DNA of 33,350 bases from a virus (IMGVR_UViG_3300045988_175829:1-33350); one strand, 5' to 3'; positions 4,583 to 33,350 are shown, numbered from the stretch's first letter. A program made the numbers and translations. Notes: generated from the sequence alone by a model not told the origin.

Positions 4583-5034
4583 TTCTCGATGCTGGAATCC
4601 TGCGCGGCTACCCGAAGGAGCGCGCCGAGCTGTACGGCAAGCCCCACCTGGGAGCGCGCTACACTCACGGCAAGGCTTACGAGCCGCTCGCCCCCTACTG
4701 CTGCGTCTGCGGCAGGCGCGCCGGAAGCGTGCACCACGTGGCCCATCGCTCCTGGGGCGAGACGTTCCGCCTGGTGACCCCGCGCGGTACCTGGGACCTG
4801 CGAAGCCCGCTGTTCTGCCTGTGCGGCAGCGGCACCACCGGATGCCACGAGAAGTTCCACGGCGGGGCGCGGCTCAAGGCCGAGTGGAAGTGGCGCTCGA
4901 CGGTCTACGAGGAGGACTGGTGGTCCGGCGAGCTGCTGCAGACCTACGGGCCGCACAGCCCCGGCCTCTACGAATACGGATACTGGCTGGTCACGGACCG
5001 TGACGGCCACGAGATGATACGGGAAGGGATGTAA
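4579..5034 (+). CDS. Cys/His-rich protein with an HNH-like nuclease signature.
   Basis: ATG at 4579 overlaps the upstream stop. The motif CCVCGRRAGSVHHVAH...N...CLCGSGTTGCHEKFH resembles a CxxC-HH-N-CxxC-H HNH motif. Confidence 0.5.
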   Translation: MILDAGILRGYPKERAELYGKPHLGARYTHGKAYEPLAPYCCVCGRRAGSVHHVAHRSWGETFRLVTPRGTWDLRSPLFCLCGSGTTGCHEKFHGGARLKAEWKWRSTVYEEDWWSGELLQTYGPHSPGLYEYGYWLVTDRDGHEMIREGM

Positions 5035-5037
5035 CCG

Positions 5038-5424
5038 ATGGAGATCATGAACTGCGAGCAGTACGTGCTGGGCGAGCTCGAGGAGGCGCAAGCGGCCATC
5101 AACAAGCTGGAGCAGGAGAACGACCGTCTGCAAGCCCAGATTGAGATTCTGGAAGGCCAGCTCAACGCCAGAGACCCGCGCGAGGACGAGGTGAGGCGCT
5201 GGGGCCGAACGGAAATCGTCAAGAAGGTGGCGTACACCACGACGACAGCCGATGTCGGCGGGGAGACGAAGTCGTTCGAGGAGTGGTGCTTCGACGCAGT
5301 CTACAGGAACTACGTCCCCAATGGCTGGAAGCGCAAGGAATTCATCGACTACTTCGAGCCGGAGCTGCGCGAGTTCTACAACAAGCGCGTCAAGGAGCTG
5401 GAAGAGGCCGAGGAGGAGGACTAA
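5038..5424 (+). CDS. Hypothetical coiled-coil protein.
   Basis: 128-aa ORF with a leucine-heptad N-terminal and an acidic C-terminal tail. Confidence 0.55.
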   Translation: MEIMNCEQYVLGELEEAQAAINKLEQENDRLQAQIEILEGQLNARDPREDEVRRWGRTEIVKKVAYTTTTADVGGETKSFEEWCFDAVYRNYVPNGWKRKEFIDYFEPELREFYNKRVKELEEAEEED

Positions 5425-5585
5425 TGACCGAGGATGAACCGTTGCGCTGCCAGACGTGCGCGCACAACGTGCCGAGGGACAGACACGAGGACTTCGGGGA
5501 CGTGTGCGAGCGCTGGTGCGACAAGTGCAACAGGTGGCTTGCTTGGAGAGACGAGCCGCCCTGCGAGAAGGGGGAGCGGAAATGA
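5424..5585 (+). CDS. Small Cys-rich (zinc-ribbon-like) protein, 53 aa.
   Basis: ATG overlaps the upstream stop (ATGA). CQTC...CERWCDKC motifs present. Confidence 0.45.
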   Translation: MTEDEPLRCQTCAHNVPRDRHEDFGDVCERWCDKCNRWLAWRDEPPCEKGERK

Positions 5586-6019
5586 GTGAGAACAAGAAAC
5601 CAATCATCGGAATCGACCTGGGCATCGACCCCGAGTACCTGGAGGGCGTCATACGGCAGACTGTGAATGCCAGTATCGCCGAGGCGCTCGGGGGAAAGGA
5701 AGCCGTGGCGTCGGAGATAATCCACAGCGTGCTCACCACCGAGGTTGACGCGGATACCGGGCGTGTTCCTCGGTACAACACCACTAAGACGGTCTCAATC
5801 ATCGAATACTACACGCGACGGGTCATCCGTGAGCAAGCCCAGGAAATCTTGGAAGAGGTCGTGGAGGAGCAACGCGGGAATCTCAAGAAGGCTGTCAAGA
5901 AGGCTATCAGCGACGAAGCGACGCTCGGGAGGATGGCGGCGAGCTTCGTAGATTCGATGCTCGGCGAAACCAATTACTACCGGCCGCGCTTCGAGGTGAC
6001 GTTCGAGAAGAAGGACTAG
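5582..6019 (+). CDS. Hypothetical protein, 145 aa.
   Basis: ATG at 5582 overlaps the upstream stop (ATGA), in frame with track ORF 5456..6019. Confidence 0.55.
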   Translation: MSENKKPIIGIDLGIDPEYLEGVIRQTVNASIAEALGGKEAVASEIIHSVLTTEVDADTGRVPRYNTTKTVSIIEYYTRRVIREQAQEILEEVVEEQRGNLKKAVKKAISDEATLGRMAASFVDSMLGETNYYRPRFEVTFEKKD

Positions 6020-8773: not shown

Positions 8774-8867
8774 CAGGCCCTGGGAGCACCCAGAAGGGGC
8801 TTCTCAAGAAGAAGCCAGGCAACGCGGGGCGGGCGCAATGCCCGCCCCTTCTCAGGAAGGAGAGCGA

Positions 8868-9404
8868 ATGAAGGTCGAGCAGGTGCCGCTGGGCACGCTG
8901 AGACCCTACGACGGCAACGCCAAGAAGCACACCGAGGAGCAGCTGGAGGCTGTGAAGAACAGCATCCGGGAGTTCGGGTTCAGAAACCCGGTCATCGCCT
9001 GGCACGACCAGGACGGCCGCGCCGAGATCGTGGCGGGCCATGCGAGGTGCAAGGCCGCGCAGGAGCTTGGCATGGACGAGGTTCCCGTCGTGTTCTGCGA
9101 CGATTTGACCGACGCGCAGCGCAGGGCGCTGACGCTGGTCGACAACCAAACGACCATGATGACGGGATGGGACGAGGACGCGCTGGCCTACGAGCTGGAC
9201 GTTCTGGCGGGCGACTTCGATATGTCGGACTTCGGTTTCGACCTTGGCGCGGCGGAAGACTTCGCCATGCCCGACGATTCGCCGCTCGAAGACGAGGGCG
9301 TCACCGTGGTCGCGAAGTTCGCGGACGTGGACGGCTACCGCGCGGCCATAGACGCGATAACCGAGGCCGTGCAGGCGCATGGTGGCGAGGTGTCGGTGCG
9401 ATAA
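8868..9404 (+). CDS. ParB-like nuclease domain protein.
   Basis: ATG at 8868 with RBS AGGAAGGAGAG. LRPYDGNAKKH followed by VAGHARCKAAQELG matches ParB N-terminal-domain box motifs. A location just upstream of the terminase module is typical for phage ParB-like proteins. Confidence 0.7.
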   Translation: MKVEQVPLGTLRPYDGNAKKHTEEQLEAVKNSIREFGFRNPVIAWHDQDGRAEIVAGHARCKAAQELGMDEVPVVFCDDLTDAQRRALTLVDNQTTMMTGWDEDALAYELDVLAGDFDMSDFGFDLGAAEDFAMPDDSPLEDEGVTVVAKFADVDGYRAAIDAITEAVQAHGGEVSVR

Positions 9405-11281: not shown

Positions 11282-12696
11282 TGGAGCCGAACCAGACGCC
11301 AACATACGAGGCGAACATCCCGGAGGACTTGACCGGTGACGGCGCGATGGCCGCTGAGCTTGCCGCCCTTTACTTCGGCGAGCCTATGCCCTGGCAACCG
11401 CACCTGCTGGATGTGATGCTCGCCCGCGACAGCCACGACAAGTTCGCGGCGCCCGAGGTGGGAATCTCCATCCCCCGCCAGAACGGCAAGAGCTTCATCG
11501 TGCGCGCCCGCTGCCTCTACGGCGCGCTGAACGGCGAGAAAATCCTATACACGTGCCACCACGGGGACACCTCGGACGAGATGTTCCAGGAGCTCTCCGC
11601 CATCTTCGAGGACGAGGAGAACGACGAACTGCACGACCTGCTGAAGCACGTCCGCAAGACCAACGGCAAGCAGGCGATCGTGCTGAAGAACGGCGGCTTG
11701 ATCCGCTTCACCACCCGCACCGACTCCGGCGGGCGCGGAAAGTCGTTCGACGTGCTCATCCTCGACGAGGCGCAGGAGCTCACCGACTCGCAGCAGGCCG
11801 CCCTGCTGCCGTCAATCAGCGCGGGGCCGAAGCACAACCCGCAGACCATCTACCTTGGCACCCCGCCTGACACGAAATGCACCGGCACCGTGTTCAGGAG
11901 CCTCCGCACCGACATCCGCAAGGGCGATTCGCTCATGGCGTGGGTCGAGTGGGGCGCTACCGAAGTGGGTGACAAGCACGACCGCGCACGATGGTACGAG
12001 TTCAACCCGAGCCTGGGAACCGTGCTGAGCGTGAAGGCCGTCGAATCGGAGTGCAACCAGATGCAGCCCGAGGTCTTCGCAAGGGAACGTCTGGGCTACT
12101 GGGCACCCACCGCAGGCGCGAAGCTGGCGTTGAACCCGGACGATTGGGCGAAGGCGTTGCGCGAGGAACCCATGGAGGACGGCAAGCTCAGCTTCGGCGT
12201 GAAGTTCGACCCCGATGGGGAGAAGGCCGCCATCTCGTGGGCATTGACGGAGCGCAACGGCGGTTCATACGTGGAGCTGTACGACATCACCGACGCCAGC
12301 ACCGGGCCGATAGCGGACATGCTGATCCGCAACGCCGACGAGATCGCCGCAGTGTTCATCGACGGCAAGGGCAAGACCGAGACGCTTGTGCAGAAGCTGA
12401 AGGACGGCCATTTCCCCGCCAAGGCGATCATGGCGGGCACCCCGGCCACCATGCAGGCCGCATCCGCGATGTTCAAGGACGAACTGGAAGCAGGGACGCT
12501 GACACACATCGAGTCACCGGCACTTGACGCGAGCGCCACCGGAAGCGTGAAGCGCGACATTGGCGGCAACGGCGGATGGGGCTTCGGCGATGGGGACGGG
12601 TGCATGTCCATCCCAGTTGAATCTGCGGCCGGAGCGCTGTATGCGGGCCGCACCACGAAACGAGAGCCAAGACGGCAACAGGAGGCGAACTTCTAA
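11281..12696 (+). CDS. terL: Terminase large subunit.
   Basis: Walker A is PRQNGKS and Walker B is VLILDEAQEL. 471 aa. The start may be the GTG at 11281, which overlaps the terS stop, or the ATG at 11347. Confidence 0.85.
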   Translation: MEPNQTPTYEANIPEDLTGDGAMAAELAALYFGEPMPWQPHLLDVMLARDSHDKFAAPEVGISIPRQNGKSFIVRARCLYGALNGEKILYTCHHGDTSDEMFQELSAIFEDEENDELHDLLKHVRKTNGKQAIVLKNGGLIRFTTRTDSGGRGKSFDVLILDEAQELTDSQQAALLPSISAGPKHNPQTIYLGTPPDTKCTGTVFRSLRTDIRKGDSLMAWVEWGATEVGDKHDRARWYEFNPSLGTVLSVKAVESECNQMQPEVFARERLGYWAPTAGAKLALNPDDWAKALREEPMEDGKLSFGVKFDPDGEKAAISWALTERNGGSYVELYDITDASTGPIADMLIRNADEIAAVFIDGKGKTETLVQKLKDGHFPAKAIMAGTPATMQAASAMFKDELEAGTLTHIESPALDASATGSVKRDIGGNGGWGFGDGDGCMSIPVESAAGALYAGRTTKREPRRQQEANF

Positions 12697-22503: not shown

Positions 22504-24734
22504 TGTCCTCCTACGATCACGACCTTTCCATCTGGATCACAGAGGTATCCGCGACGGGCTTCCGCGTCAACGGCCGCGTGAAGCTCGGACGGAATTCCTA
22601 CAACGCCAGCGGCTTCCACGTCGAGACTGGCGTGAGCGGCTACGGCTCGCGCGGCCACACCGCCAGCATCGGCACCAGGGGCGGCAGCTACGATTTCAGC
22701 GACTACTACTCCGTCGGCACGTCCTACGACGCCAGGAGCTTCAGCTGCCACGTGTCGGCAGACCTCAGCTGGTCGAGCAACGGCACCAACACGGGCAACC
22801 CCGTCTACGCCACGGCGTGGACTCCCGCGAGCGAGTACAACCAGCCCTATCCGCCCAAGAACCCCGCAGTTGCCCGCGTCTCGGACACCCAGGCGAAGGT
22901 CACGTGGGGGAGCAACTACGACAACGCCTCCGGCCGTCACTGGCACAAGGTCTACGTCGAGCGCTCCACGGATGGCGGCGGATACTCGCAGATCGCCGCC
23001 CTGAATTGGGACGTCACCAACTACATCGACAACGGCGTGAGCGCGAACCATTCGTACGCCTACAGGCTCCGCGCGGCGAACACCAAGTACAGCGATTACG
23101 TGACGGCGGGCACGGTGTACAACACACCCGCAGCGCCGAGGTCGGTCGCGGCCTCGCTCGTCTCTGCCGGCACCGTGCGCGTGGACGCCGACGTGACCAA
23201 CGTCAACACCGCCACCTCGTACGCCATCGAGCGCAGCGTGGGCGGCGGGGAGTGGGCGAAGGTCTCAGAGGTCGCGTCCTTCCCCTACGACGACACCGGC
23301 GCGGCCGGCATGGTCTCCTACCGAGTGCAGGCGCTGCGCGGCCCGCTCGCGAGCGCATGGGCGGTATCCGACCGGATAGCGGCCATCACGCCCCCGCTTG
23401 CGCCCAAGGTCGCGCTCGCGGCGGCGGTCATGCCCGTCGGCGGCGGAGTGGGAGTGTCGTGGACGCCCAACCACCCCGACGGCTCCGCGCAGGAGGCCGC
23501 GCAGGTCGGCTACACGGTCGACGGCGGCACCGAGGCCGTGCTGGGCGTGGAGGGCGCGGCGGCGTCTGCCGTCATCCCGGATGACGGGACTCCGCACTCG
23601 TGGTCCGTGCGCGTCCGCACCAAGGGCGCGCACGAGGACTGGGGCGCGTGGTCCGCACCGGCGCTCTGCGCCACCGCCGTCCCTCCGCAGGTCGTCATCA
23701 CGCGCCCCGCGTCGGACGACGACGTGATGTCCGAGCTGCCGTTCTCCATCGAGTGGCAGGTCTCGCCCGAGACCCCCGACGCCTCCACCACGGTGCGCGT
23801 CACGGCGGGCGCGGCGTCGTACAGCGCCCAGCTGCCCGCAGGCGCCAGGTCGCTCTCCATCGGGCGCGACAGCCTCTTCCCGGCGAGCGGGGAGGTCATG
23901 ACCGTCGCGCTCGAGGTCGTGGGCACCTCGACGCTCCGCACGACCGCAGAGCGCACCTGCTCCGTGGAGTACGCAGCCCCCGCCGTCCCGGCCGCCGAGG
24001 CGGTCGTGGGCGGTCTGCTGTCGGTGTCCGTCACCGTGCGCTTCGGCGGCGACGGGTGGAGCGTGGTCGGCACGGGCCTCGTCTCGCCCGAGTACGAGGT
24101 GGAGGATGACGCGATCCCCATCAGCGCGGGCGCGGAGGTGGTAGACGGCGCGGCCGAGATAGGCGACACCGCAGCCACCGAGAGCGTGGACGTGGTGCGC
24201 GTCATGCCCGACGGCTCCCAGTGGGTGGTCGCCGACGGCATGGCCGACGGCGAGTCGTGCATCGACCCGCTGCCGCCCATCAACACCGACTACAGCTACC
24301 TCGTCGTTGCCCGCGCCCAGTCGGGCGCCGTCTCCACGCTCACCGTCCCCATGAGGGTCGAGAGCCGCTGCTGGGCCGTCAACTTCGGCCCGGCGGCGCA
24401 GGGCGGGCGGCTGTTCGAGCTGTCCCCGTCGTCCAGCGTGGACGTGTCCCGCACGGGCGAGCTGCTACGCTTCGCGGGCGGCGGGCTGCCGATGTTCTAC
24501 GGCGACGGCGGCGTCAGCTCAAAGATGTCGCTCGGCTTCAAGCTGCTCAGCGCGTCCGAGGTCACGGAGGTCGAGTCGATGTTCCGCGAGCACGCCGTGG
24601 CGTGGCTGCGCGACCCGATGGGCCGCAGGCTCCGCGCGAGGGTGTCTGTCGGCACGTCGATGGTCGTGAGGGACCTCCACTCGGTGTCCATCGACGCCGA
24701 GGAGGTCAGGTGGATGGAGGCCGCGAATGGCTGA
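22503..24734 (+). CDS. Distal tail protein (Dit)-like protein with an FN3-like domain insertion.
   Basis: GTG at 22503 overlaps the TMP stop (taGTG). The long track ORF 21915..24734 is open upstream only because of high GC. FN3-like repeats are present (PAVARVSDTQAKVTWG, AAPRSVAASLVSAGTVRVDADVTN), and the C-terminal region is siphovirus tail-component-like. Confidence 0.55.
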   Translation: MSSYDHDLSIWITEVSATGFRVNGRVKLGRNSYNASGFHVETGVSGYGSRGHTASIGTRGGSYDFSDYYSVGTSYDARSFSCHVSADLSWSSNGTNTGNPVYATAWTPASEYNQPYPPKNPAVARVSDTQAKVTWGSNYDNASGRHWHKVYVERSTDGGGYSQIAALNWDVTNYIDNGVSANHSYAYRLRAANTKYSDYVTAGTVYNTPAAPRSVAASLVSAGTVRVDADVTNVNTATSYAIERSVGGGEWAKVSEVASFPYDDTGAAGMVSYRVQALRGPLASAWAVSDRIAAITPPLAPKVALAAAVMPVGGGVGVSWTPNHPDGSAQEAAQVGYTVDGGTEAVLGVEGAAASAVIPDDGTPHSWSVRVRTKGAHEDWGAWSAPALCATAVPPQVVITRPASDDDVMSELPFSIEWQVSPETPDASTTVRVTAGAASYSAQLPAGARSLSIGRDSLFPASGEVMTVALEVVGTSTLRTTAERTCSVEYAAPAVPAAEAVVGGLLSVSVTVRFGGDGWSVVGTGLVSPEYEVEDDAIPISAGAEVVDGAAEIGDTAATESVDVVRVMPDGSQWVVADGMADGESCIDPLPPINTDYSYLVVARAQSGAVSTLTVPMRVESRCWAVNFGPAAQGGRLFELSPSSSVDVSRTGELLRFAGGGLPMFYGDGGVSSKMSLGFKLLSASEVTEVESMFREHAVAWLRDPMGRRLRARVSVGTSMVVRDLHSVSIDAEEVRWMEAANG

Positions 24735-25800
24735 TTGGCTGGCGGAGTTCGACGCCTCGTACCGCTTCATGCGCGTTGACCGCGCCACTGGCGCCGAGGT
24801 CTCCGAGCTGGAGGGATTCGAGGGCGGCGGCTCCATCTCCCGCAACCTCGACACCGACGTATACGAGAGCGCTTCGGCGACGTGCGAGGGCGGCCTCGAC
24901 GTGGGCGCCGACCTCGTTCGCGTCTACCTGGACGCCGACTTCGGCGGCGAGGTTGAGCGCGTGGCATTGGGCACCTTCGTCCCGAGCGTGCCCAAGCGCG
25001 ACGTGTCGAGCGAGGTTGACCGCGCCAGCGTGTCGATGCAGGGCAGGCTGTCAGAGCTGGCCGAGGATGCGTTCGACGCGCCGTTCTCACTTCCCGCGGG
25101 GTCAGACCCCGTTGCGGAGGCTGCGGCGATATGCCGAGCGTGCGGGCTGGCCGTTTCGGCAGACGTGAGCGCCTACAGGCTCTCCACCGCGTGGACGTTC
25201 GGCCTGTCCGAGACGAGCGACGGCGAGGGCGGCAGCAAGCTCAAGGCCGTCAACGCCCTGCTCGGCATCGCCGGCTTCGCATCGGCCGTCACCGACCCGA
25301 TGGGCACCGTGCTCATGCGCAGGTACGCGGAGCCTGATGCCCGCCCCCTCGCCGCCGAGTGGCGCGAGGGCGCAGACGCGAGGTTCCTGGACGAGTGCGT
25401 GGACGAGCGCGACGCCAGCGGCGTGGCGAACGTCGTGCGCGCGGTCTACGAGACGCCAGAGGCGACCGTCATCGGCGTTGCCGTCGACGACGACCCGGGC
25501 AGCCCGTACTCCACCGCAGCAATAGGGCGCAGGCGCGTCAAGGAGTACAAGTACGACGACGAGGTTACGCAGGCCGAGGCCGACGCTGAGGCCGCGAGGC
25601 TGCTGGCCGAGCAGGCGTCCGTGACCAGGCGCGTGACCGTCTCGCACGTCTACGCGCCCCACGTGGCGTGCTACGACGCGGTCACGTTCGCATATCGCGG
25701 CATAGGCGGCAGGTTCGCCGTGCGCACGCAGGATTTGACCCTCGGGGCGGGCTGCATGGTCCGCGCCGAGCTCAGGAGATTCGAGAGGGCGGCGAGATAG
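24727..25800 (+). CDS. Tail-associated (Tal-like) baseplate hub protein.
   Basis: 357 aa, immediately after the Dit-like gene. Confidence 0.45.
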   Translation: MADWLAEFDASYRFMRVDRATGAEVSELEGFEGGGSISRNLDTDVYESASATCEGGLDVGADLVRVYLDADFGGEVERVALGTFVPSVPKRDVSSEVDRASVSMQGRLSELAEDAFDAPFSLPAGSDPVAEAAAICRACGLAVSADVSAYRLSTAWTFGLSETSDGEGGSKLKAVNALLGIAGFASAVTDPMGTVLMRRYAEPDARPLAAEWREGADARFLDECVDERDASGVANVVRAVYETPEATVIGVAVDDDPGSPYSTAAIGRRRVKEYKYDDEVTQAEADAEAARLLAEQASVTRRVTVSHVYAPHVACYDAVTFAYRGIGGRFAVRTQDLTLGAGCMVRAELRRFERAAR

Positions 25801-26055
25801 ATGGATGTGAATACGACGCTGCTGGCCGTCGGCGACATGATCTACGACGGCTCCGCGCGGCCAGCCGTGCCCGTCCCGACGGTCAGGTACGGCGACGTGC
25901 TGGCCGTCGGCGAGAGGACGATGGACGTGCGCGTGGGAGGGGCGAGGCTCGACGGCCTGCCCATGATGGCGCACTGCTCGGGGGCGTCGGTCGGGGACCG
26001 CGCGCGCGTGGTCACGGTCGGTGCGGAATCTGTCGTCGACGGGATACTGGCATAG
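25801..26055 (+). CDS. Small tail-associated hypothetical protein.
   Basis: 84-aa ORF in the tail-tip block. Confidence 0.4.
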   Translation: MDVNTTLLAVGDMIYDGSARPAVPVPTVRYGDVLAVGERTMDVRVGGARLDGLPMMAHCSGASVGDRARVVTVGAESVVDGILA

Positions 26056-26065
26056 GAGGTCATGC

Positions 26066-26920
26066 ATGGCTAATACACCAGCTAAATTCTTGAAGGACGT
26101 CGCGGGCCAGGTCTACGCAGTCGTGGTGGACGGCGTGGTCTACGGCATCGCGGGAGCCGACGGCCAGGCCGAAGCGGAGCGCAAGGCCGCTGAATCAGAG
26201 CGCGTGGCTGCGGAGGAAGCGAGGGCCGCTGGGGAATCGGCCCGCGTGAGCGCCGAGGCCGAGCGCGCCACCGCCGAGACGCAGCGCGCGACCGACCAGG
26301 CGAAGAACAACGCCGACCAGGCTCTCAACAACGAGGCGATCAAGAAACTAAGTCCGGTAATCCTGAACGCGGGCCAGTACGACGCGGCAACCTATAGGCC
26401 GACCATCACGGGCGAACCGAACCGAACGTACTTCGTGCCGATGAAGTCCGCAGACGATAACAAGTACGTCGAGTGGATGTGGGTCGGTTCTGCATGGGAG
26501 AAAATGGGCATCACGACTGCCGAGTTCTCCAACATCACCACGGACCAGATCGATAACATCATGGGCGGCGCGAGCGAGCATGGCGATTCCGTCCTCTCGC
26601 TCACGGGCCTCACGTACCTCTTGAAGAAGCTCGGGGCGGGTCTCAAGGCGTCTTTCGCAGTCATCGGCCACAAGCACGACGCGTCCGACATTACGAGCGG
26701 GGTGCTGTCAATCTCCAACGGCGGCACGGGTGCCGCGACGGCTGCGGGCGCGCGCAATGCGCTCGGTCTCGGAGACACGACAGGCGCGCTGCCAGTCGCC
26801 AACGGCGGCACCGGGGCGGCCACGGCGGCGGAAGCGCTCGCCGCGCTCGGCGTGACCGTCGGCGAGGCCGACGCGCCGGAGACGGGCGCTCCCGGCTCGG
26901 TCTACATCAAGATGCTCTAG
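26066..26920 (+). CDS. Tail fibre protein.
   Basis: ATG at 26066 with RBS TAGGAGGTCATGC. An Ala/Glu-rich coiled coil is followed by the duplicated motif SNGGTGAATAAGARNALGLG / ANGGTGAATAAEALAALG, which is typical of phage tail-fibre C-termini. Confidence 0.65.
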   Translation: MANTPAKFLKDVAGQVYAVVVDGVVYGIAGADGQAEAERKAAESERVAAEEARAAGESARVSAEAERATAETQRATDQAKNNADQALNNEAIKKLSPVILNAGQYDAATYRPTITGEPNRTYFVPMKSADDNKYVEWMWVGSAWEKMGITTAEFSNITTDQIDNIMGGASEHGDSVLSLTGLTYLLKKLGAGLKASFAVIGHKHDASDITSGVLSISNGGTGAATAAGARNALGLGDTTGALPVANGGTGAATAAEALAALGVTVGEADAPETGAPGSVYIKML

Positions 26921-26930
26921 GGGGTGCGCC

Positions 26931-27764
26931 ATGGCTCATTGGGAAGGCGGGGTGTGCCAGCGCACGGGAAGAACCGTGTGCAGCCTGGATGCCACCGTGA
27001 CGAACGTCAACGACATGCAGGCCACGGTGAGCCTCACCGGCTACTCGTGGTCGGACATCGTGGACATGTGGGGATTCGACCTGTGGGTCGGCAACGGCAC
27101 CGTGCTCGGAGCAGGCGGCATCAACGGCGAGAGCAAGACGCATCCCAGATGGTCGACGACGACCAAAGTCCCGAGCGGGGGCCTCAGGCGCACCGTGACC
27201 GTGCCGCGCGCCTGGGGGGAGGACACGACGCTCGCCGTGTGGTGCCGGTACAGCGACTCCAACCCGGTGAAGTATTACGGCAGGCTCGACGCCTCCGTGA
27301 CGATCCCGCGCATGACCTCCCCGGTCCATTCAGTGAGCGCCGTGGCGGACAAGGACGCAGTTTTGTTTGAAGAGCCCGTGTCGCTGACGGTCACGGACTC
27401 GCTTGGTGCCAGCATGGCGCAGATGGACCACTTCGAGGTCTGGTGCGGCGGGAGGCTCGCCGCGAAAGGCGCGACCGACCACACGAGCAACCGCAGCGAG
27501 ACCTTCTCGATCGTCCCGAGCGACTACGCTCCGGTCGGCGGCGACCTGGACATCACCGTCAAGAGCGTGCACGAGTGGTGGGGGACCTACCCGGAGGCGT
27601 GCGCGACCGTGACGGTGAAGGTCCTCGGCGGCGTGGTCACCGTCTACGACTCCACCGGAACAAAGCGAACGGGCCTCGTCACGGCCTACGACTCCACCGG
27701 GACGGCGCGCCCCGTCGCGCTGACCGCCTACGACGCATCCGGCAACGCGCGCGCGGTGCGCTGA
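26931..27764 (+). CDS. Putative receptor-binding / tail-tip protein with C-terminal tandem peptide repeats.
   Basis: 277 aa. The C-terminus reads VTVYDSTGTKRTGLVTAYDSTGTARPVALTAYDASGNARAV, and the corresponding DNA tandem repeats are at about 27640-27760. Confidence 0.45.
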   Translation: MAHWEGGVCQRTGRTVCSLDATVTNVNDMQATVSLTGYSWSDIVDMWGFDLWVGNGTVLGAGGINGESKTHPRWSTTTKVPSGGLRRTVTVPRAWGEDTTLAVWCRYSDSNPVKYYGRLDASVTIPRMTSPVHSVSAVADKDAVLFEEPVSLTVTDSLGASMAQMDHFEVWCGGRLAAKGATDHTSNRSETFSIVPSDYAPVGGDLDITVKSVHEWWGTYPEACATVTVKVLGGVVTVYDSTGTKRTGLVTAYDSTGTARPVALTAYDASGNARAVR

Positions 27765-27781
27765 CCGGGAGGAGGTGATAC

Positions 27782-28225
27782 ATGGACGAACTCATGAAGG
27801 CGCTGGCGCAGTCCATCGCCCACGCTGGCCCCGAGTGGGCGGCGCTCATCATCGTGGCGGTGCTCGTGGTCACGCAGGTCGTGCCCGCCCTCAAGGAGTA
27901 CAAGGCCTCGCGCCTCGAACTTGAGCGCGAGCGGCAGGCGGCGCAGGTGGAGCTTGAGCGCTCCCGCGAGCAGCGCAAGACCGATGACGCCAAGCGGCTC
28001 GACCAGCGCGACCAGGAGCGCAGCCGGGCCGAGGGCCGCTGGCTCGAACTGGCCGACCGCCAGCAGAAGCTGCAGGAGCAGACGAACCTCGTCATCGAGG
28101 GCATGAGGGCGCAGATGGAGGTCAACAACGCGCTTTTGGCCGAGAGCAAGGACCGCAGCCGACACATGGCGCGGCAGGTGGACGAGATGCACGGCATCAT
28201 CGCCCACCGGGAGGAAACCGATTAA
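27782..28225 (+). CDS. Membrane-anchored coiled-coil protein at the start of the lysis cassette.
   Basis: An N-terminal TM helix (WAALIIVAVLVVTQVVPAL) is followed by a charged coiled coil. Confidence 0.45.
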   Translation: MDELMKALAQSIAHAGPEWAALIIVAVLVVTQVVPALKEYKASRLELERERQAAQVELERSREQRKTDDAKRLDQRDQERSRAEGRWLELADRQQKLQEQTNLVIEGMRAQMEVNNALLAESKDRSRHMARQVDEMHGIIAHREETD

Positions 28226-28235
28226 GGAGAGACAC

Positions 28236-28445
28236 ATGAAGCAGTACAAGATTCCCGATGCGGCCTACAAGGCGCTCAAGTGGGCGGGTCTTATCGCATG
28301 CCCTGCCATCGCCACGTTCGTCGGCGTTGTCGGCCCCGTGTGGGGCATGCCCAACGTCGATGCGATCGTCACGACCATCAACGCTGCCGGGGTGTGCATC
28401 GGCGCGCTCATCGGGTACAGCGCTGCAACAGCCAAGGAGGTCTAG
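28236..28445 (+). CDS. Holin (two-TM small membrane protein).
   Basis: 69 aa with two hydrophobic helices, immediately upstream of the endolysin gene. RBS AAGGAGAGACACATG. Confidence 0.6.
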   Translation: MKQYKIPDAAYKALKWAGLIACPAIATFVGVVGPVWGMPNVDAIVTTINAAGVCIGALIGYSAATAKEV

Positions 28446-28447
28446 GC

Positions 28448-28582
28448 ATGGCAGAGGAGACGCAGGAGCTGACGCAAGAGCAGTACGAAGCGCTCAAGCG
28501 CGCGCTCAGCTGGAACGGCGGCCAGGGTTACGACGGGGACGGCCCTGACGATGATTTCGAACCCGTGGAGGTGGATTACTGA
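28448..28582 (+). CDS. Small acidic hypothetical protein, 45 aa.
   Basis: ATG at 28448 with RBS AAGGAGGTCTAGGC. It lies between the holin and endolysin genes. Confidence 0.35.
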   Translation: MAEETQELTQEQYEALKRALSWNGGQGYDGDGPDDDFEPVEVDY

Positions 28583-29451
28583 TGGCGACGGCAAAACAGG
28601 TCCTCGCCCGCGAGGCCGCCGAGATCGGCTACAGCCGCTGGGACGATCCCGAGCAGGGCACGAAGTACGGTCGATGGTTCGCAGAGCTTGTCGGTTCCCC
28701 GTGGTTCGGCGCGAACGGCGTTGCCTTCTGCGCGATGGGCCAGTCCTATTGCTTCCATGCCGTAGGCCAGAAGGCCCCGGGTCTCCCCACGGCTGGCTGC
28801 GGAGACGTGCGCCGCGCCGCGCTGTCGGCGAAGCGCGTTGTCAACAAGGCTGCGGCGAAGCCCGGTGACCTCGTACTGTTCCGCTGGGACAAGCGCACGG
28901 ATGACCTCTCGTACTCCGACCACATCGGCATCGTGGAGGTCAATTTCGGCAAGTCCTACCAGACCATCGAGTTCAACACCAACGGGGGCCGCGTCGCGCG
29001 CCGCGTGCGCAGCCTCGACGTGGTTCAGCTCGTGGTGCGCCCCGAGTACGACGGAGACACCGGCTCCGGCTCCGATTCGCTGCCAGTCAAGCTCCAAGTG
29101 GACGGCATCTGGGGCCGCGCGACCACGCTGCGCATCCAGGAAGTGCTGGGCGCACCGTACAGGGACGGCGAGATCAGCCGCCAGAACTCCGCCTGGAAGT
29201 CCATCAGCCGTGGCTGCGGCACCGGCTGGGAGTGGGTCGCGGGCGGCGAGGAACCCGGCTCGCAGACCATCAAGCTCATGCAGCAGCGCATCGGTGCCAC
29301 GCCCGATGGTTTCGTAGGACCGAACACATGGAACCGCTTGATTCGCTACTACCAGGCAGCGAGCGGCGCGACCGAGCTGGACGGCCGCATCGACTGCCCG
29401 TCCATCACCGTGAAGGCGATGCAGCGCGCGCTCAATGAAGGACGCTTCTAA
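28582..29451 (+). CDS. Endolysin: an N-terminal CHAP peptidase domain plus C-terminal peptidoglycan-binding repeats.
   Basis: 289 aa. The CHAP Cys and His residues are present (FCAMGQSYCF ... SDHIGIV), and the C-terminal repeats are PG_binding-like (GIWGRATTLRIQEVLG, GFVGPNTWNRLIRY). Confidence 0.8.
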   Translation: MATAKQVLAREAAEIGYSRWDDPEQGTKYGRWFAELVGSPWFGANGVAFCAMGQSYCFHAVGQKAPGLPTAGCGDVRRAALSAKRVVNKAAAKPGDLVLFRWDKRTDDLSYSDHIGIVEVNFGKSYQTIEFNTNGGRVARRVRSLDVVQLVVRPEYDGDTGSGSDSLPVKLQVDGIWGRATTLRIQEVLGAPYRDGEISRQNSAWKSISRGCGTGWEWVAGGEEPGSQTIKLMQQRIGATPDGFVGPNTWNRLIRYYQAASGATELDGRIDCPSITVKAMQRALNEGRF

Positions 29452-29454
29452 CAG

Positions 29455-29492
29455 AAACCCCTCCCCGCTACGGCGGGGAGGGGTTTCTTCTG
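29455..29492 (+). terminator. Terminator after the lysis cassette.
   Basis: Long hairpin AAACCCCTCCCCG-CTAC-GGCGGGGAGGGGTTT followed by a T-rich tract. Confidence 0.7.
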
Positions 29493-29537
29493 GACCTATC
29501 TTGTACCTAAGTTGCTGAAGTTCTCCCCCACCTGGCG

Positions 29538-29577
29538 ATTGCCAAATAATTGCCATTCTTGCCAAAAATTGCCAAAA
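29538..29577. repeat. Four direct TTGCCA repeats at about 10-bp spacing. These are a candidate attP arm-type integrase binding site array.
   Basis: The copies are ATTGCCAAAT, ATTGCCATTC, CTTGCCAAAA and ATTGCCAAAA. The array lies between the lysis genes and int in an AT-rich stretch. Confidence 0.5.
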
Positions 29578-29611
29578 ATACAGGGCGTTTCAGGGCATCC
29601 CAGTAAAAAGA

Positions 29612-29650
29612 AAACGTCCCCTGAGCTGCGATAACTCAGGGGACGCATCA
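29612..29650 (-). terminator. Rho-independent terminator downstream of the truncated int gene on the minus strand.
   Basis: Hairpin CCCCTGAG-N9-CTCAGGGG. On the minus strand it is followed by TTTTCTTTTT. Confidence 0.65.
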
Positions 29651-29652
29651 TT

Positions 29653-30369
29653 TCAACTGGCGGAGAGCTGGGGGTAGGTCCCGCGCACCGTGAGCTCGCG
29701 CCGCGCGAGGTCGACGTCCTCCCAGCGCAGGGCGAGCACCTCGCCCTTGCGCAGCCCCTCGCACAGCCCGATCACGCAGATGCGCTCGACGCACGAGCCC
29801 GGCTGCGTCTCGCGCAGGAGGCCCAGCAGGCGCATATGCTCGGCGAAGGTGGTGAGCCACACGACGCCGCGCTCGGGGTCGGCCGCGCCGTCGCCGGGAT
29901 AGGTGTAGCGAAACGACGCGGGGTTCACGGGAATCATGCCCATCTCGACGGCGCACCCCAGCACCGAGGACAGCGTCTCGCGGGCGTTGGTCGCCGTCTT
30001 TCGCGTGGGGCACCCCGATATCATGCGCTGTATGTTCAGCTTGTTTATCTGCTCGAGCTCCATGTTGCCCAGCGCGGGCAGGATGCGCCTCCTGAGGTCG
30101 CGCTCGTAGCCCTGCCTCGTGTTCGCGCGCAGCCCCGCCTTCTGCGGCCAGTACACCTCGTCGACGAACTCCGCCAGCGTGATGCGCGCCGTGACGCGCC
30201 CGCGCAGGCGCTCCTTCTCCATGAGCAGGCGGGTCTCCGCCTTGCGGGCCTGCCCCTTGGTCGGGTACGTCTCCACGCGCCTGTCGCGCGAGCCGTCCCA
30301 CTTGACGCCGACCGTGACGTCGGCCGCCCACTTGCCGCTCTTCAGCTTCCGGACCGCCATGATGTACAA
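29653..30369 (-). pseudogene. int: Tyrosine integrase truncated after 238 aa. The arm-binding (AP2-like) and core-binding domains are present, but the catalytic domain stops just after the first conserved Arg.
   Basis: The sequence runs through the N-terminal arm-type DNA-binding region and the core-binding SAM-like domain. It ends ...GLRKGEVLALRWEDVDLARRELTVRGTYPQLSAS-stop, lacking the HxxR, second Arg, His/Trp and Tyr nucleophile. A stop is followed directly by a terminator. Confidence 0.7.
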
Positions 30370-30456
30370 TCACCTTGCCTTCCGTGTATTCGGTTGGTAC
30401 TTGCATGGCCTCGCGCAGGGTTGCAGCCCGTATGCGCGGGGCCTATTTTCGTCTGC

Positions 30457-31299
30457 CTAGGCCCTCTCGACCCAATCGGGCACCTTGACGCCCGGTCCGG
30501 CGATGAGCAGCTCCCTCCCCACCTTCGCGGACGCCGCGCTGTAGCCCACGTCGATGAGGTACCTGTCGAAGTCCCCGTAGATCTCGGATATGAGCGGCAC
30601 GTTGTCGTAGGTGACCATCCAGGGGAACCCGCAGCCGGCTATCTTCCCGGCGACCTCCCTGTGGTCGTCCTCGGTGTACGAGTTCTCGTACAGGCCCGGC
30701 CCCTTCACGACGTACGGCGGGTCGAAGTTGGCGAACAGCCCGTCCTCTCGCGCGAGGACGGACGAGATGAACTCGCAGGCGTCCATGTTGTACAGGTCGA
30801 TATCCGCCGAGCGGGCGGCGATCGCGCGCACCTTGTCGCAGAGCGGCCCCTTGTTGAAGCGCTCCGAGATGCCGAACTTGCCCTTCTGGGACATGCCTCC
30901 GATCGGGCCGCCGTGCAGTATGCCCGACCTGTTCGCCCTGTTCAGGTAGAAGGCCGCCTTGCCGAGCTCGAGCGATGGGGCGCTGGAGGACAGGTAGACC
31001 TCGCGCTGGGCCTTCCACTCGGGGATGCCCAGCTCCGCGCCCTCGATGAACGCGCACAGCTCGTCCGGGTGGTTCACTATCGCGTCCCACATGCTGTACA
31101 CGGCAGGGTCGATGTCGTTCAGGATCACCCTGGAGACGCGCCCGCGCAGCAGCAGCTTCATGGCCAGGCCCGCCCCGCCGCAGTACGCCTCTGCGTAGGT
31201 GCAGCCCCCGAGGCCGCTCTCGGCGATGATGGAGTCCACCAGCGGGTATATCTTCGATTTGCCGCCGGGGTACCTGATCGGCGTGTATGTCGTCGGCAT
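30457..31299 (-). CDS. Dam-family (D12 class) N6-adenine DNA methyltransferase.
   Basis: 280 aa. N-terminal SAM motif IRYPGGKSK and catalytic motif FDPPY are present. RBS GAGGAGGTG. Confidence 0.85.
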   Translation of the reverse strand: MPTTYTPIRYPGGKSKIYPLVDSIIAESGLGGCTYAEAYCGGAGLAMKLLLRGRVSRVILNDIDPAVYSMWDAIVNHPDELCAFIEGAELGIPEWKAQREVYLSSSAPSLELGKAAFYLNRANRSGILHGGPIGGMSQKGKFGISERFNKGPLCDKVRAIAARSADIDLYNMDACEFISSVLAREDGLFANFDPPYVVKGPGLYENSYTEDDHREVAGKIAGCGFPWMVTYDNVPLISEIYGDFDRYLIDVGYSAASAKVGRELLIAGPGVKVPDWVERA

Positions 31300-31332: not shown

Positions 31333-32979
31333 TTACTCGCTGTCGGCCCTCTTGGCCATAGGCAAGATCTGAGCGCCGACGCGCTTCGCCACGGTGTTGT
31401 ACGCCCTCATGAAATCCCCGACGAAGGCATCCGCTTCCGAACGGTTGTCGTTCACCCAGTGCTCGACAACTCTGGCCCGCTCGAAGGTGCGCTCATAGCG
31501 TCTAAACCAGTGCTTGTACATATTGCGCTTGGTCTCACCCGGATACATGTCTTCGGGGGCGCTCTCGACCAGATTCTCCCAAGACACCCCAACCGCACCG
31601 AGGTCCTCCCACAGGGGACTTCCATCGGTTGGCCTCTTGGACAAGTAATCCCATAAGAGGCTCTCTGGTCGCTTCTCGCCAGGGAGAAACACTATGTTTC
31701 CTCCGCTTTCTCTTACCGCCGGGGGAATTTTGCCATCTATTTCTTCGACCGTGACGTCACCGTCGAAGACAACGACCTTCTCCCTGAAATACGAAAAGTC
31801 ACCCGCATAGAGACTCGCAATCTGCTTGCACCCAAGGGAAACGTCGAGAAAGTCCGAGTTGTCAACCACCTCAGGACGCAACACGTCGAGCAGCTCCCTT
31901 AGGAGCCAGCGGGCTTCGGCATCCTCGGTGAACACTCCGATACGCCTAGTACTGAGAGCGGGATTGGAGACATAGAGTCCGTTCTCGAGATTTGACCACG
32001 ACGAGTTTCTCATCGACCTAAGCTTGCCGTTGACGCACGACAGGTACGCGACCTCGACGCCTCCGGGCGAGGAGGTGGGATTGTACTGGTTCTTTTCGCT
32101 CAACTCCCTGAGGATCACCGTGCTGTGGGTGGTGAACACGACCTGGAACCCGCACGCTTTCGATTCATCCAGGAGGAGTTTGAGGAGCCTCTGCTGCGCC
32201 GCCGGATGGAGCGACGCGTCGACCTCGTCGATGAGGAGAAGGCCGCCGTCCCAGTCGCCGCCCATCTCGTCCCTCAGCTTCTTGAAGGAGAGGACCGCGA
32301 GGAGAATCTGACCCAAGTTGTCCTGACCGGACGAGTTCGCCATCGGCCCATAGGTGTCAGTCTCGACCCCGGTGCCGCTCTTCAATGAAATCCCCGTGAT
32401 TGACAGGCTGCTCAGGGACCTGATCGGTTCATGGATGCTCAGGATTCTCGAATAGTTCTCGTTGAACCACTCCTCGTCCGCAGCGTCTCCCCACCGACGG
32501 TTCTTCGCCGTGACCGTGATGGAGCCGTTGCCCGGCTCGCGGTCCGGGTCGACCAGCACGTGGCTGCCCTCGGGTATGACGCGGTCCATGCAGTCGCCCT
32601 CGACCTCGAGCGCGAAGGCGCGCGGATGCGAGGCGAGCACCGAGGCCGGCACCTCGACGCGGTGGGAGACCTCCTCCTCGTCGGTCAGCGCGCCGGCGTG
32701 CACGCGCCCGATCGCGAGCAGCGGCACGGTCGCGGAGGACGCGGTCACGGGCATGGCTCCGGAGGGGACGGAAGAGCCCTCGGGTTCATCGTCGATAATC
32801 TCGCCCTTGTTTATTCCAAAGTAGTCGGCAATTGCCTGAACGGCACCCATTCGAGGAACCGCTCGATCATTCTCCCGTTGAGAAACAGCCATCGAAGAAA
32901 CGTCGGCAATCTTGCCAAACTCGTCTTGGGTAAGACCGTGGGCATTTCTGATTCGCCTGATATTCGAACCTATACTCAT
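31333..32979 (-). CDS. CI/LexA-like repressor (XRE HTH plus S24 autopeptidase domain) fused in frame to an OLD-family ATPase C-terminal half and a Toprim nuclease domain.
   Basis: The ATG at 32979 is preferred over the GTG at 32988 because of RBS GAGAGGTG. N-terminal HTH: IRRIRNAHGLTQDEFGKIADVSSMAVSQRE. Linker: VPLLAIGRVHAG-ALTD, LexA-like with Ala-Gly. S24 core: EVEGDCM ... VLVDPDREPGNGSITVTAKN. ABC signature SSGQDNLGQILLAVL, Walker B LLLIDEVDASLHP and H-loop VVFTTHS follow, with no Walker A anywhere. The Toprim-like E in GVFTEDAEA and DxD in VVVFDGD follow those. Confidence 0.75.
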   Translation of the reverse strand: MSIGSNIRRIRNAHGLTQDEFGKIADVSSMAVSQRENDRAVPRMGAVQAIADYFGINKGEIIDDEPEGSSVPSGAMPVTASSATVPLLAIGRVHAGALTDEEEVSHRVEVPASVLASHPRAFALEVEGDCMDRVIPEGSHVLVDPDREPGNGSITVTAKNRRWGDAADEEWFNENYSRILSIHEPIRSLSSLSITGISLKSGTGVETDTYGPMANSSGQDNLGQILLAVLSFKKLRDEMGGDWDGGLLLIDEVDASLHPAAQQRLLKLLLDESKACGFQVVFTTHSTVILRELSEKNQYNPTSSPGGVEVAYLSCVNGKLRSMRNSSWSNLENGLYVSNPALSTRRIGVFTEDAEARWLLRELLDVLRPEVVDNSDFLDVSLGCKQIASLYAGDFSYFREKVVVFDGDVTVEEIDGKIPPAVRESGGNIVFLPGEKRPESLLWDYLSKRPTDGSPLWEDLGAVGVSWENLVESAPEDMYPGETKRNMYKHWFRRYERTFERARVVEHWVNDNRSEADAFVGDFMRAYNTVAKRVGAQILPMAKRADSE

Positions 32980-33083
32980 GGCTTGCACCTCTCGAACGCT
33001 AAATTCTTTTTACATTATAAGAAAAAGGTTCTTTACATTCACTGTATGTTCACCTATAGTCTTAATCATCGAAAGGAGGTCAG
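32980..33083. promoter_or_regulatory. AT-rich divergent switch region between the repressor-fusion gene and the cro-like gene. It holds the two TTTACATT operator-like repeats and the cro-side -35/-10 hexamers.
   Basis: TTTACATT lies at about 33009-33016 and 33032-33039. TTTACA, 17 bp, TATAGT (33032-33060) precedes the cro RBS GAAAGGAGG. The region is about 30% GC, against about 65% for the genome. Confidence 0.55.
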
Positions 33084-33278
33084 ATGGAACTCATCGAAGC
33101 TCGCAAAAAGGAGCGATACACGCAGCAGCAAGTGGCTGATTATCTAGGTATATCCCGCATTACATATGCAAAGATGGAAAAGAACCCTGGCGACATCACC
33201 CTTGACAATGCGCGTAAGCTCGCCACTCTTTTCAAGGTTGATGTGCGCGATATTTTTTTCCCTACAAGCGATAGTTAA
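33084..33278 (+). CDS. cro: Cro-like XRE-family HTH regulator.
   Basis: 64 aa with YTQQQVADYLGISRITYAKMEKN as the HTH. It is divergent from the repressor gene and has a strong RBS. Confidence 0.75.
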   Translation: MELIEARKKERYTQQQVADYLGISRITYAKMEKNPGDITLDNARKLATLFKVDVRDIFFPTSDS

Positions 33279-33350
33279 TATAGTTCAAAAGGAGACCCAA
33301 AGATGCCCATCAACGTGGACCAGGCGGTGACCGCGTCGGTCATGGCGAAG

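Follow-up and report, generated by a model that had tools for sequence, protein, structure and literature searches.

The window, i.e., the whole 33,350-nucleotide stretch IMGVR_UViG_3300045988_175829 analysed here, is best explained as the complete genome (33,251 bp without its terminal overlap) of a temperate-type siphophage of Collinsella in which two deletions wrecked the lysogeny module, the first of them made by the phage's own integrase, leaving a lytic derivative; we hold this explanation as a whole with fair confidence. Comparison with intact relatives shows that deletion 1 took out 1,227 bp, from inside the attP core to codon 231 of the integrase gene (int), and that deletion 2 took out 643 bp and fused the CI-like repressor to a defence-type ATPase.

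The int remnant is an ORF of 235 amino acids plus stop on the minus strand (29653-30360), with an ATG start at 30360 and an alternative TTG start three codons upstream (30369). It consists of the N-terminal, SAM-like and core-binding domains of tyrosine recombinases plus 35 residues of the catalytic domain. A Pfam scan returned PF14659 (residues 61-115, E 6e-9) and PF22022 (residues 68-148), and gave no match in the remnant to the catalytic domain, PF00589, which covers residues 199-345 in the integrase of a full-length relative. Among the proteins retrieved in a protein search were 370-aa tyrosine integrases from Collinsella prophages, 98% identical, for instance P0002, which stands for 367 member sequences. 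The remnant is collinear with these integrases up to residue 231, and residues 232-370 are absent. The initial annotation had described an integrase that stops about 30 residues past its first catalytic Arg, and the alignment to full-length integrases bears this out: Arg204 (in GLRKGE) is the sole catalytic residue that remains, while Arg311 (SLRHSF), His333 (MGHAD/GHAD) and Tyr343/344 (MRYY) are missing. The statement that this is no simple frame-hop is likewise correct, as searches of the deleted segment against the window (blastn and tblastn) found the continuation of int neither in another frame nor elsewhere, which excludes a frame-hop or a relocated C-terminal half. The same searches, together with a search for the core, revealed no copy of hicAB or of the right part of the core elsewhere in the window, nor a second int half or a second core; among the 20 ORFs scanned, about half of the total, there was no second recombinase. 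Exact-sequence look-ups with the truncated protein in both start variants gave nothing, and a megablast comparison of the region with INPHARED phages yielded no match.

The undeleted arrangement can be read from L005 (IMGVR_UViG_3300045988_146123), a 97%-identical phage found in IMG/VR using the neighbouring lysin as the query. Window positions 22582-29673 align with L005 1-7092 and positions 29668-30460 with L005 8320-9113 (97-98% identity), the window being without L005 7093-8319, i.e., 1,227 bp. On the plus strand, this segment comprises ATTCGAACCCCAG, an arm with ATTGCCA repeats, the toxin-antitoxin genes hicB and hicA, and the last 139 codons of int, which carry all catalytic residues but Arg I. 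The stretch inherited from int and its upstream leader (29674-30460, minus strand) is 98% identical to L005 8320-9113 and to L009 9900-10693. At the deletion 1 junction (29668-29674, breakpoint 29673/29674), the microhomology CTGGG (29668-29672) is common to the attP core (CTGGGG/ATTCGAA) and the int site (CTGGGT/GTAGGTC), G29673 is attP-derived, and int-derived sequence begins at 29674. The junction reads GAGAGCTGGGG/GTAGGTCCC, its attP parent GAGAGCTGGGG/ATTCGAA and its int parent GCCCTGGGT/GTAGGTCCC; in the undeleted arrangement, CTGGGG runs on into ATTCGAACCCCAGCATGACAAG. An 813-nt block of core, P′ arm and hicBA (99.3-99.5% identity) comes right after int in all eight relatives that have an integrase at least 96% identical (L001-L003, L005 and L009-L012), so that the parent of the window almost certainly had this block. 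The exact junction of the window is a single observation, absent from IMG/VR, from the JGI metagenome contigs and from the protein collection; a broader probe of the JGI metagenome contigs brought up attR sites, a junction of the L008 type (see below) and a host scar, without the window's junction.

The left part of the attP core (29658-29673, minus strand) is the phage's own copy of the final 16 nt of tRNA-Ser(GCT): reverse-complemented, the window sequence TGGCGGAGAGCTGGGG gives the 3′ end of this tRNA, with the 3′ strand of the T-stem, the 3′ strand of the acceptor, the discriminator base and CCA. PQLSAS, with which the int remnant ends, and its stop are encoded by this tRNA remnant. A tRNA scan of the window found none, as expected for a remnant of 16 nt. 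In the relatives, attP targets the tRNA gene over an attP/attB identity block of about aCTGGCGGAGAGCTGGGGATTCGAACCCCAG, ~30 nt in length; the breakpoint 29673/29674 falls within this block, and the window keeps only 16 nt of it. Six lysogen contigs feature the same lysin, P arm and hairpin, and then the complete tRNA-Ser(gct), which constitutes attR; L027 has tRNA-Ser(gct) at attR as well. At attL, in L001 and L029, the displaced 3′ fragment of the tRNA adjoins the P′ arm and int. The case thereby precisely defines attP and attB, at tRNA-Ser(GCT), in a Collinsella prophage family that is widespread. An attP site within int, as in SSV-like elements, was excluded: in intact relatives, the core lies ~800 nt past the int stop, beyond hicA/hicB.

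A terminator hairpin had initially been noted directly after the int stop. A hairpin of 14 pairs followed by a T-run is indeed present (29604-29646, minus strand, the fold and T-run being located at 29646-29614), but it lies behind the tRNA-Ser copy and is not the terminator of int, since in six lysogens (L006, L019 and L023-L026) the same hairpin immediately follows the complete tRNA-Ser at attR; it is rather a phage-supplied terminator located behind the regenerated tRNA. The attP-like arm sites that were said to be retained are there on one side only. The P arm (29539-29576, plus strand) has four direct TTGCCAWW repeats, presumed to be arm-type integrase binding sites, and the total of five such motifs in the window was reached by none of 100 shuffles. 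In L005 and L001, a P′ arm with two or three similar repeats completes the module of core, P and P′ arms, heterobivalent as for the lambda Int. The window has lost the right part of the core along with all of the P′ arm and, judged from what is left, its attP is non-functional.

In addition, we identified a second deletion anchored at the core. L008 turned up in IMG/VR in a search with the methyltransferase of the window, which has nothing to do with the junction. It is a related phage whose lysin differs, and its int remnant is fused to the core (GAGAGCTGGG/TAGCTCCCCGCGG, also written GAGAGCTGGG/TAGCTCC). Its deletion is at the same core position as that of the window, and its int site is ~190 nt from the one involved in the window. 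The gene (L008 6932-7474) bears two deletions, the additional one removing 378 bp of int between 10-bp repeats. L028, from a separate ENA assembly, is the same phage: the 99.97% identity of L008 and L028 across separate assemblies implies that the deleted lineage is real and has been sampled twice. On comparison of the junctions, the core-to-int deletion in L008/L028 is independent of that in the window. The allele in L012 (GTCTGGGTAGC) suggests that both int partner sites may read CTGGGT, as against CTGGGG in attP. At this single mismatch, the window keeps the attP base (G) and L008 the int base (T).

Amongst the short integrase C-termini in the protein collection, the core-fusion signature (PQLSAS, ALRQ.., SSPPVEMMR) is found only in P0080, which corresponds to L008; the remaining short integrases represent contig ends, frameshifts or internal deletions. 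The internally deleted variants, some of them in frame, include P0035, P0047, P0060 and P0070, and their abundance suggests either that the GC-rich int gene often undergoes microhomology deletions or that short Logan contigs were collapsed during assembly. One further truncated integrase of 241 aa (P0001, L004 3540-4005, 18 member sequences) was considered as a like event and rejected: here, int is interrupted by an IS21-family element, the N-terminus of IstA being encoded downstream of it in L004. Going by this arrangement, IS21 insertion is a different route to the inactivation of int in the same family.

We give a little better than an even chance to the possibility that deletion 1 was made by the phage's own integrase, acting on attP and a pseudo-att site inside int. 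The integrase would recombine attP with the pseudo-att site (CTGGGT...); such secondary-site recombination would be intramolecular and between sites in direct orientation and would excise the intervening 1.2 kb. With an overlap region covering CTGGG(G/T), segregation of the heteroduplex would leave G in the window and T in L008. Integrases that target tRNA genes cross over in the 7-bp T-loop or at the junction of the T and acceptor stems (PMC1762012, PMC4383910). The 7 nt after each of the two int breakpoints share no identity with the T-loop, so that a canonical exchange of two strands would be inefficient if it had the T-loop at its centre. Moreover, the junctions of the window and L008 are one base apart in register, which would fit catalysis by Int only if the overlap covers CTGGG(G/T).

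Deletion 1 might instead be the result of integrase-independent illegitimate recombination, by slippage or microhomology joining at CTGGG, in the same way as deletion 2. This reading gains weight from the missing T-loop identity and from the frequency of microhomology deletions in this GC-rich family: the 5-nt microhomology at the deletion 1 junction is matched by one of 6 nt at deletion 2, by the 10-bp repeats flanking the 378-bp deletion in L008 and by the internally deleted int variants listed above. It is harder to reconcile with two independent deletions at the same core position. In a chance model of unbiased 5-nt microhomology, only 8 of the 2,005 left/right pairs that would truncate int have their left end within 3 nt of the core position (0.4%, or 2.8% if left ends are confined to non-coding sequence); at 0.4-2.8% per model, two independent events there are unlikely to be a product of chance. 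Furthermore, the common spot lies within the ~30-bp block where the integrase must cut, and both partner sites resemble the right half-site at the 7-bp spacing. Both int sites score 8/12 against the half-sites CTGGGG-N7-CCCCAG, a score reached or exceeded by 19 of 4,340 positions in the dispensable region (top 0.44%), the similarity being in part the microhomology itself; for the right half-sites alone, the joint probability is ~0.014. A variant of the slippage reading, in which the tRNA-like T-arm hairpin (CTGGGG-ATTCGAA-CCCCAG) stalls replication, might account for a hotspot at the core, and the consequences for the phage would be unchanged. On balance, we regard an integrase-independent origin as unlikely, albeit by no means negligible. 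That the truncation is not biological at all, but an error of assembly or sequencing, or a rare defective molecule followed by the assembler in a population intact at int-hicAB-attP, appears most improbable: the window junction is seen in no other collection searched, but 5-6 nt of identity is too little for De Bruijn assemblers to join sequences, the ends of the contig overlap by 99 nt with the gene order of its relatives across the closure, the analogous L008 junction recurs in an independent assembly and the same genome carries a second, unrelated deletion in its lysogeny module.

Extending the integrase-made origin of deletion 1 beyond this genome, Collinsella phage integrases would repeatedly destroy their own genes by recombination between attP and pseudo-att sites (CTGGGT), with non-integrating lineages that persist and spread. 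Behind this proposal stand at least two independent events, one of which was seen in two separate assemblies; we put it forward tentatively, at somewhat less than an even chance.

Deletion 2 created an in-frame fusion ORF of 551 aa (31333-32988, minus strand), in which the N-terminus of the repressor is joined to the C-terminal 387 residues of an ATPase. The repressor part (about residues 1-159) consists of the HTH (HTH_3) and the start of the S24-like domain, with Peptidase_S24 matched over the first 72 of its 116 profile positions; the last part of AAA_21/AAA_15 is also matched in the fusion. The 387-residue part is 97% identical to the C-terminus of 548-aa AAA_15/AAA_21 ATPase effectors and, as compared to these homologues, is without the first ~154-161 residues, Walker A included. 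The homology to the repressors of the relatives ends at 32513, and intact repressors run ~56 residues further. The junction (32513-32518) features a 6-bp microhomology (ACCGTG, plus strand). Intact gene order, in L029 and L032, is repressor, ATPase, methyltransferase, (Fic) and int, and with reference to L029, the 643 bp lost correspond to 178 nt of the 3′ end of the repressor gene, a 4-nt spacer and 461 nt of the 5′ end of the effector gene. The function of the repressor has probably been lost, and the fusion protein would then be incapable of maintaining repression. In L008, an independent in-frame fusion of the repressor with the C-terminus of an effector was observed (4906-5967; 353 aa), with a shared VEV motif at the join. 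In this repressor family, the S24-like domain carries a GDCM motif (about 32590-32610, minus strand, in the window; also in L004, L009, L011 and L014). LexA-type repressors have a Ser nucleophile at the equivalent position; a Cys takes its place in all the repressor relatives looked at.

The cargo between repressor and int includes an intact D12-class N6-adenine DNA methyltransferase (30457-31299, minus strand; PADLOC PD-Lambda-5_B, E 2e-97). Of the PD-lambda-5-like pair, the methyltransferase is whole and the ATPase is truncated; L008 likewise keeps the methyltransferase alone. The retained methyltransferase may protect the phage from the intact system in resident Collinsella prophages or islands. 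We also observed a ~6.8-kb element at the same tRNA-Ser(GCT) in L029 (5885-12780) and in L031, with both att sites present. Its content is limited to the P arm, two small ORFs, a repressor, the ATPase in two pieces (100 + 437 aa), the methyltransferase, Fic and an int of full length. This may be a defence island of the satellite type or else what is left of a prophage after loss of the entire lytic region.

The initial annotation had also noted that the contig closes on itself, and this is the case: bases 1-99 are identical to 33252-33350, a terminal assembly overlap of 99 nt that closes the circle, and the genes on either side of this joint are ordered as in the relatives L002, L004 and L011. 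A Cro-like HTH gene (33084-33278, plus strand), divergent from the repressor fusion, extends into the overlap. The lytic genes are present and encode the small and large terminase, portal, protease, major head protein, Erf, a DnaC-like loader and a CHAP/PG-binding lysin. The host belongs to the genus Collinsella, the integrase sequence being 99% identical to that of C. bouchesdurhonensis Marseille-P3296 and 97-98% identical to those of several Collinsella MAGs; related prophages with a 98-99% identical integrase are common in this genus. L005 is also exactly 33,350 bp in length, yet it is 97% identical, carries different cargo and has the additional 1,227 bp, and we take the equal lengths as a coincidence.

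With repressor, int and attP all truncated and the lytic modules present, the window probably descends from a common temperate phage of Collinsella that deletions have turned into a lysogeny-defective, lytic form, as far as can be read from its genes. It would be unable to integrate and, for want of a complete attP, beyond rescue by a helper integrase; it would propagate lytically, with the circular closure reflecting a replicating or packaged genome, not a plasmid prophage. The truncation of the repressor in particular speaks against a stable carrier state and for a lytic deletion derivative. The lifestyles proposed at the outset fare less well than the truncation, the missing continuation and the circular closure described with them, because damage to int, attP and repressor alike leaves helper rescue, a locked-in prophage and plasmid maintenance poorly supported. 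A locked-in prophage is contradicted by the contig, which contains no host DNA and is joined in the configuration of the phage circle. Persistence as a plasmid prophage, or integration and excision by means of the integrase of a resident related prophage, is suggested by the circular closure, the retained P-arm repeats, the frequency of Collinsella prophages with a nearly identical integrase and a 188-aa ParB-like nuclease-domain protein encoded upstream of the terminase genes (8838-9404, plus strand). Nevertheless, we consider it very improbable: with the right half of the core and the P′ arm deleted, a helper or host recombinase would find no complete substrate, the repressor is without the last ~56 residues of its S24-like domain, and positive support for a plasmid is lacking, as the 20 ORFs scanned (about half of all) included neither ParA nor a plasmid replication gene and the ParB-like protein is of the short nuclease-domain type, which is common in lytic-cycle phage modules.

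Deletion derivatives of the lysogeny module and att-anchored deletions are phenomena of a known kind; modestly interesting in detail is that, in natural genomes, int has been destroyed from the att core more than once. The Int-promoted att deletions of lambda, described in 1971 by Parkinson and Huskey, by Parkinson and by Davis and Parkinson, reportedly run from the crossover region of attP to a secondary site in non-essential DNA close by and leave a phage that is viable but att-defective. Deletion 1, if Int made it, would be their counterpart in nature. The endpoint in the window is similarly inside the att identity block, with L008/L028 at the same position. In contrast, the partner site is here inside int, so that the event destroys the very enzyme presumed responsible; and the lambda deletions are selected laboratory mutants, whereas those described here occur in natural gut phage genomes and their Int dependence is presumed. 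Virulent or lysogeny-defective derivatives include mycobacteriophage D29 and, in Streptococcus thermophilus, the deletion mutants of Sfi21 and the Sfi19-type virulent phages. The window resembles these in its complete lytic gene set and in int and repressor genes reduced to remnants by deletions, but differs in its Collinsella host, its other gene content, the breakpoint in the att core and the retained methyltransferase of a defence pair.

The intact relatives are like other systems with tRNA-targeting integrases (the Williams 2002 classes, mycobacteriophage Ms6, Islander islands) in having an identity block of ~30 nt from the T-arm to the 3′ end, a tRNA regenerated at attR and a displaced 3′ fragment at attL (PMC1762012, PMC4383910); unlike these, the window keeps the last 16 nt of the block, is without the catalytic domain and has no functional integration module. 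In the SSV-type "suicidal" archaeal integrases, the int ORF itself contains attP, and the split that normal integration makes in the gene can be undone (PMC7253208). Although site-specific recombination ends in a disrupted integrase gene there too, attP of the Collinsella phages is ~800 nt downstream of int, beyond hicAB, and the loss is an irreversible deletion.

A truncated int on a closed viral contig may prompt exotic readings, helper dependence or a plasmid prophage among them, but it can simply be the scar of a small attP-anchored deletion. If integrase-made self-deletions are common, they would provide a concrete route from temperate gut phages to lytic lineages, as well as a source of error for lifestyle-prediction tools that rely on the mere presence of an int-like ORF. 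Should the integrases indeed destroy their own genes in this way, temperate gut phages would be converted into non-integrating lineages in one step, inflicted by their own enzyme.

Finally, an extra truncated 3′ fragment of tRNA-Ser (CTGGCGGAGAGCTGGGGATT(C), followed by unrelated GC-rich sequence) exists in several Collinsella chromosomes, placed ~165 nt downstream of the tRNA-Ser gene (L001 10975-10995; L027 1305-1350; L009-L011 about 11908-12107); in L027, the phage P arm is joined to a truncated tRNA-Ser 3′ fragment. These extra fragments could be scars of earlier integrations or of the use of secondary sites. Elsewhere in the window, the ORFs of the tail-fibre region contain three tandem 42-nt repeats (27630-27755) and a pair of 74-nt repeats 84 nt apart (26693-26850).
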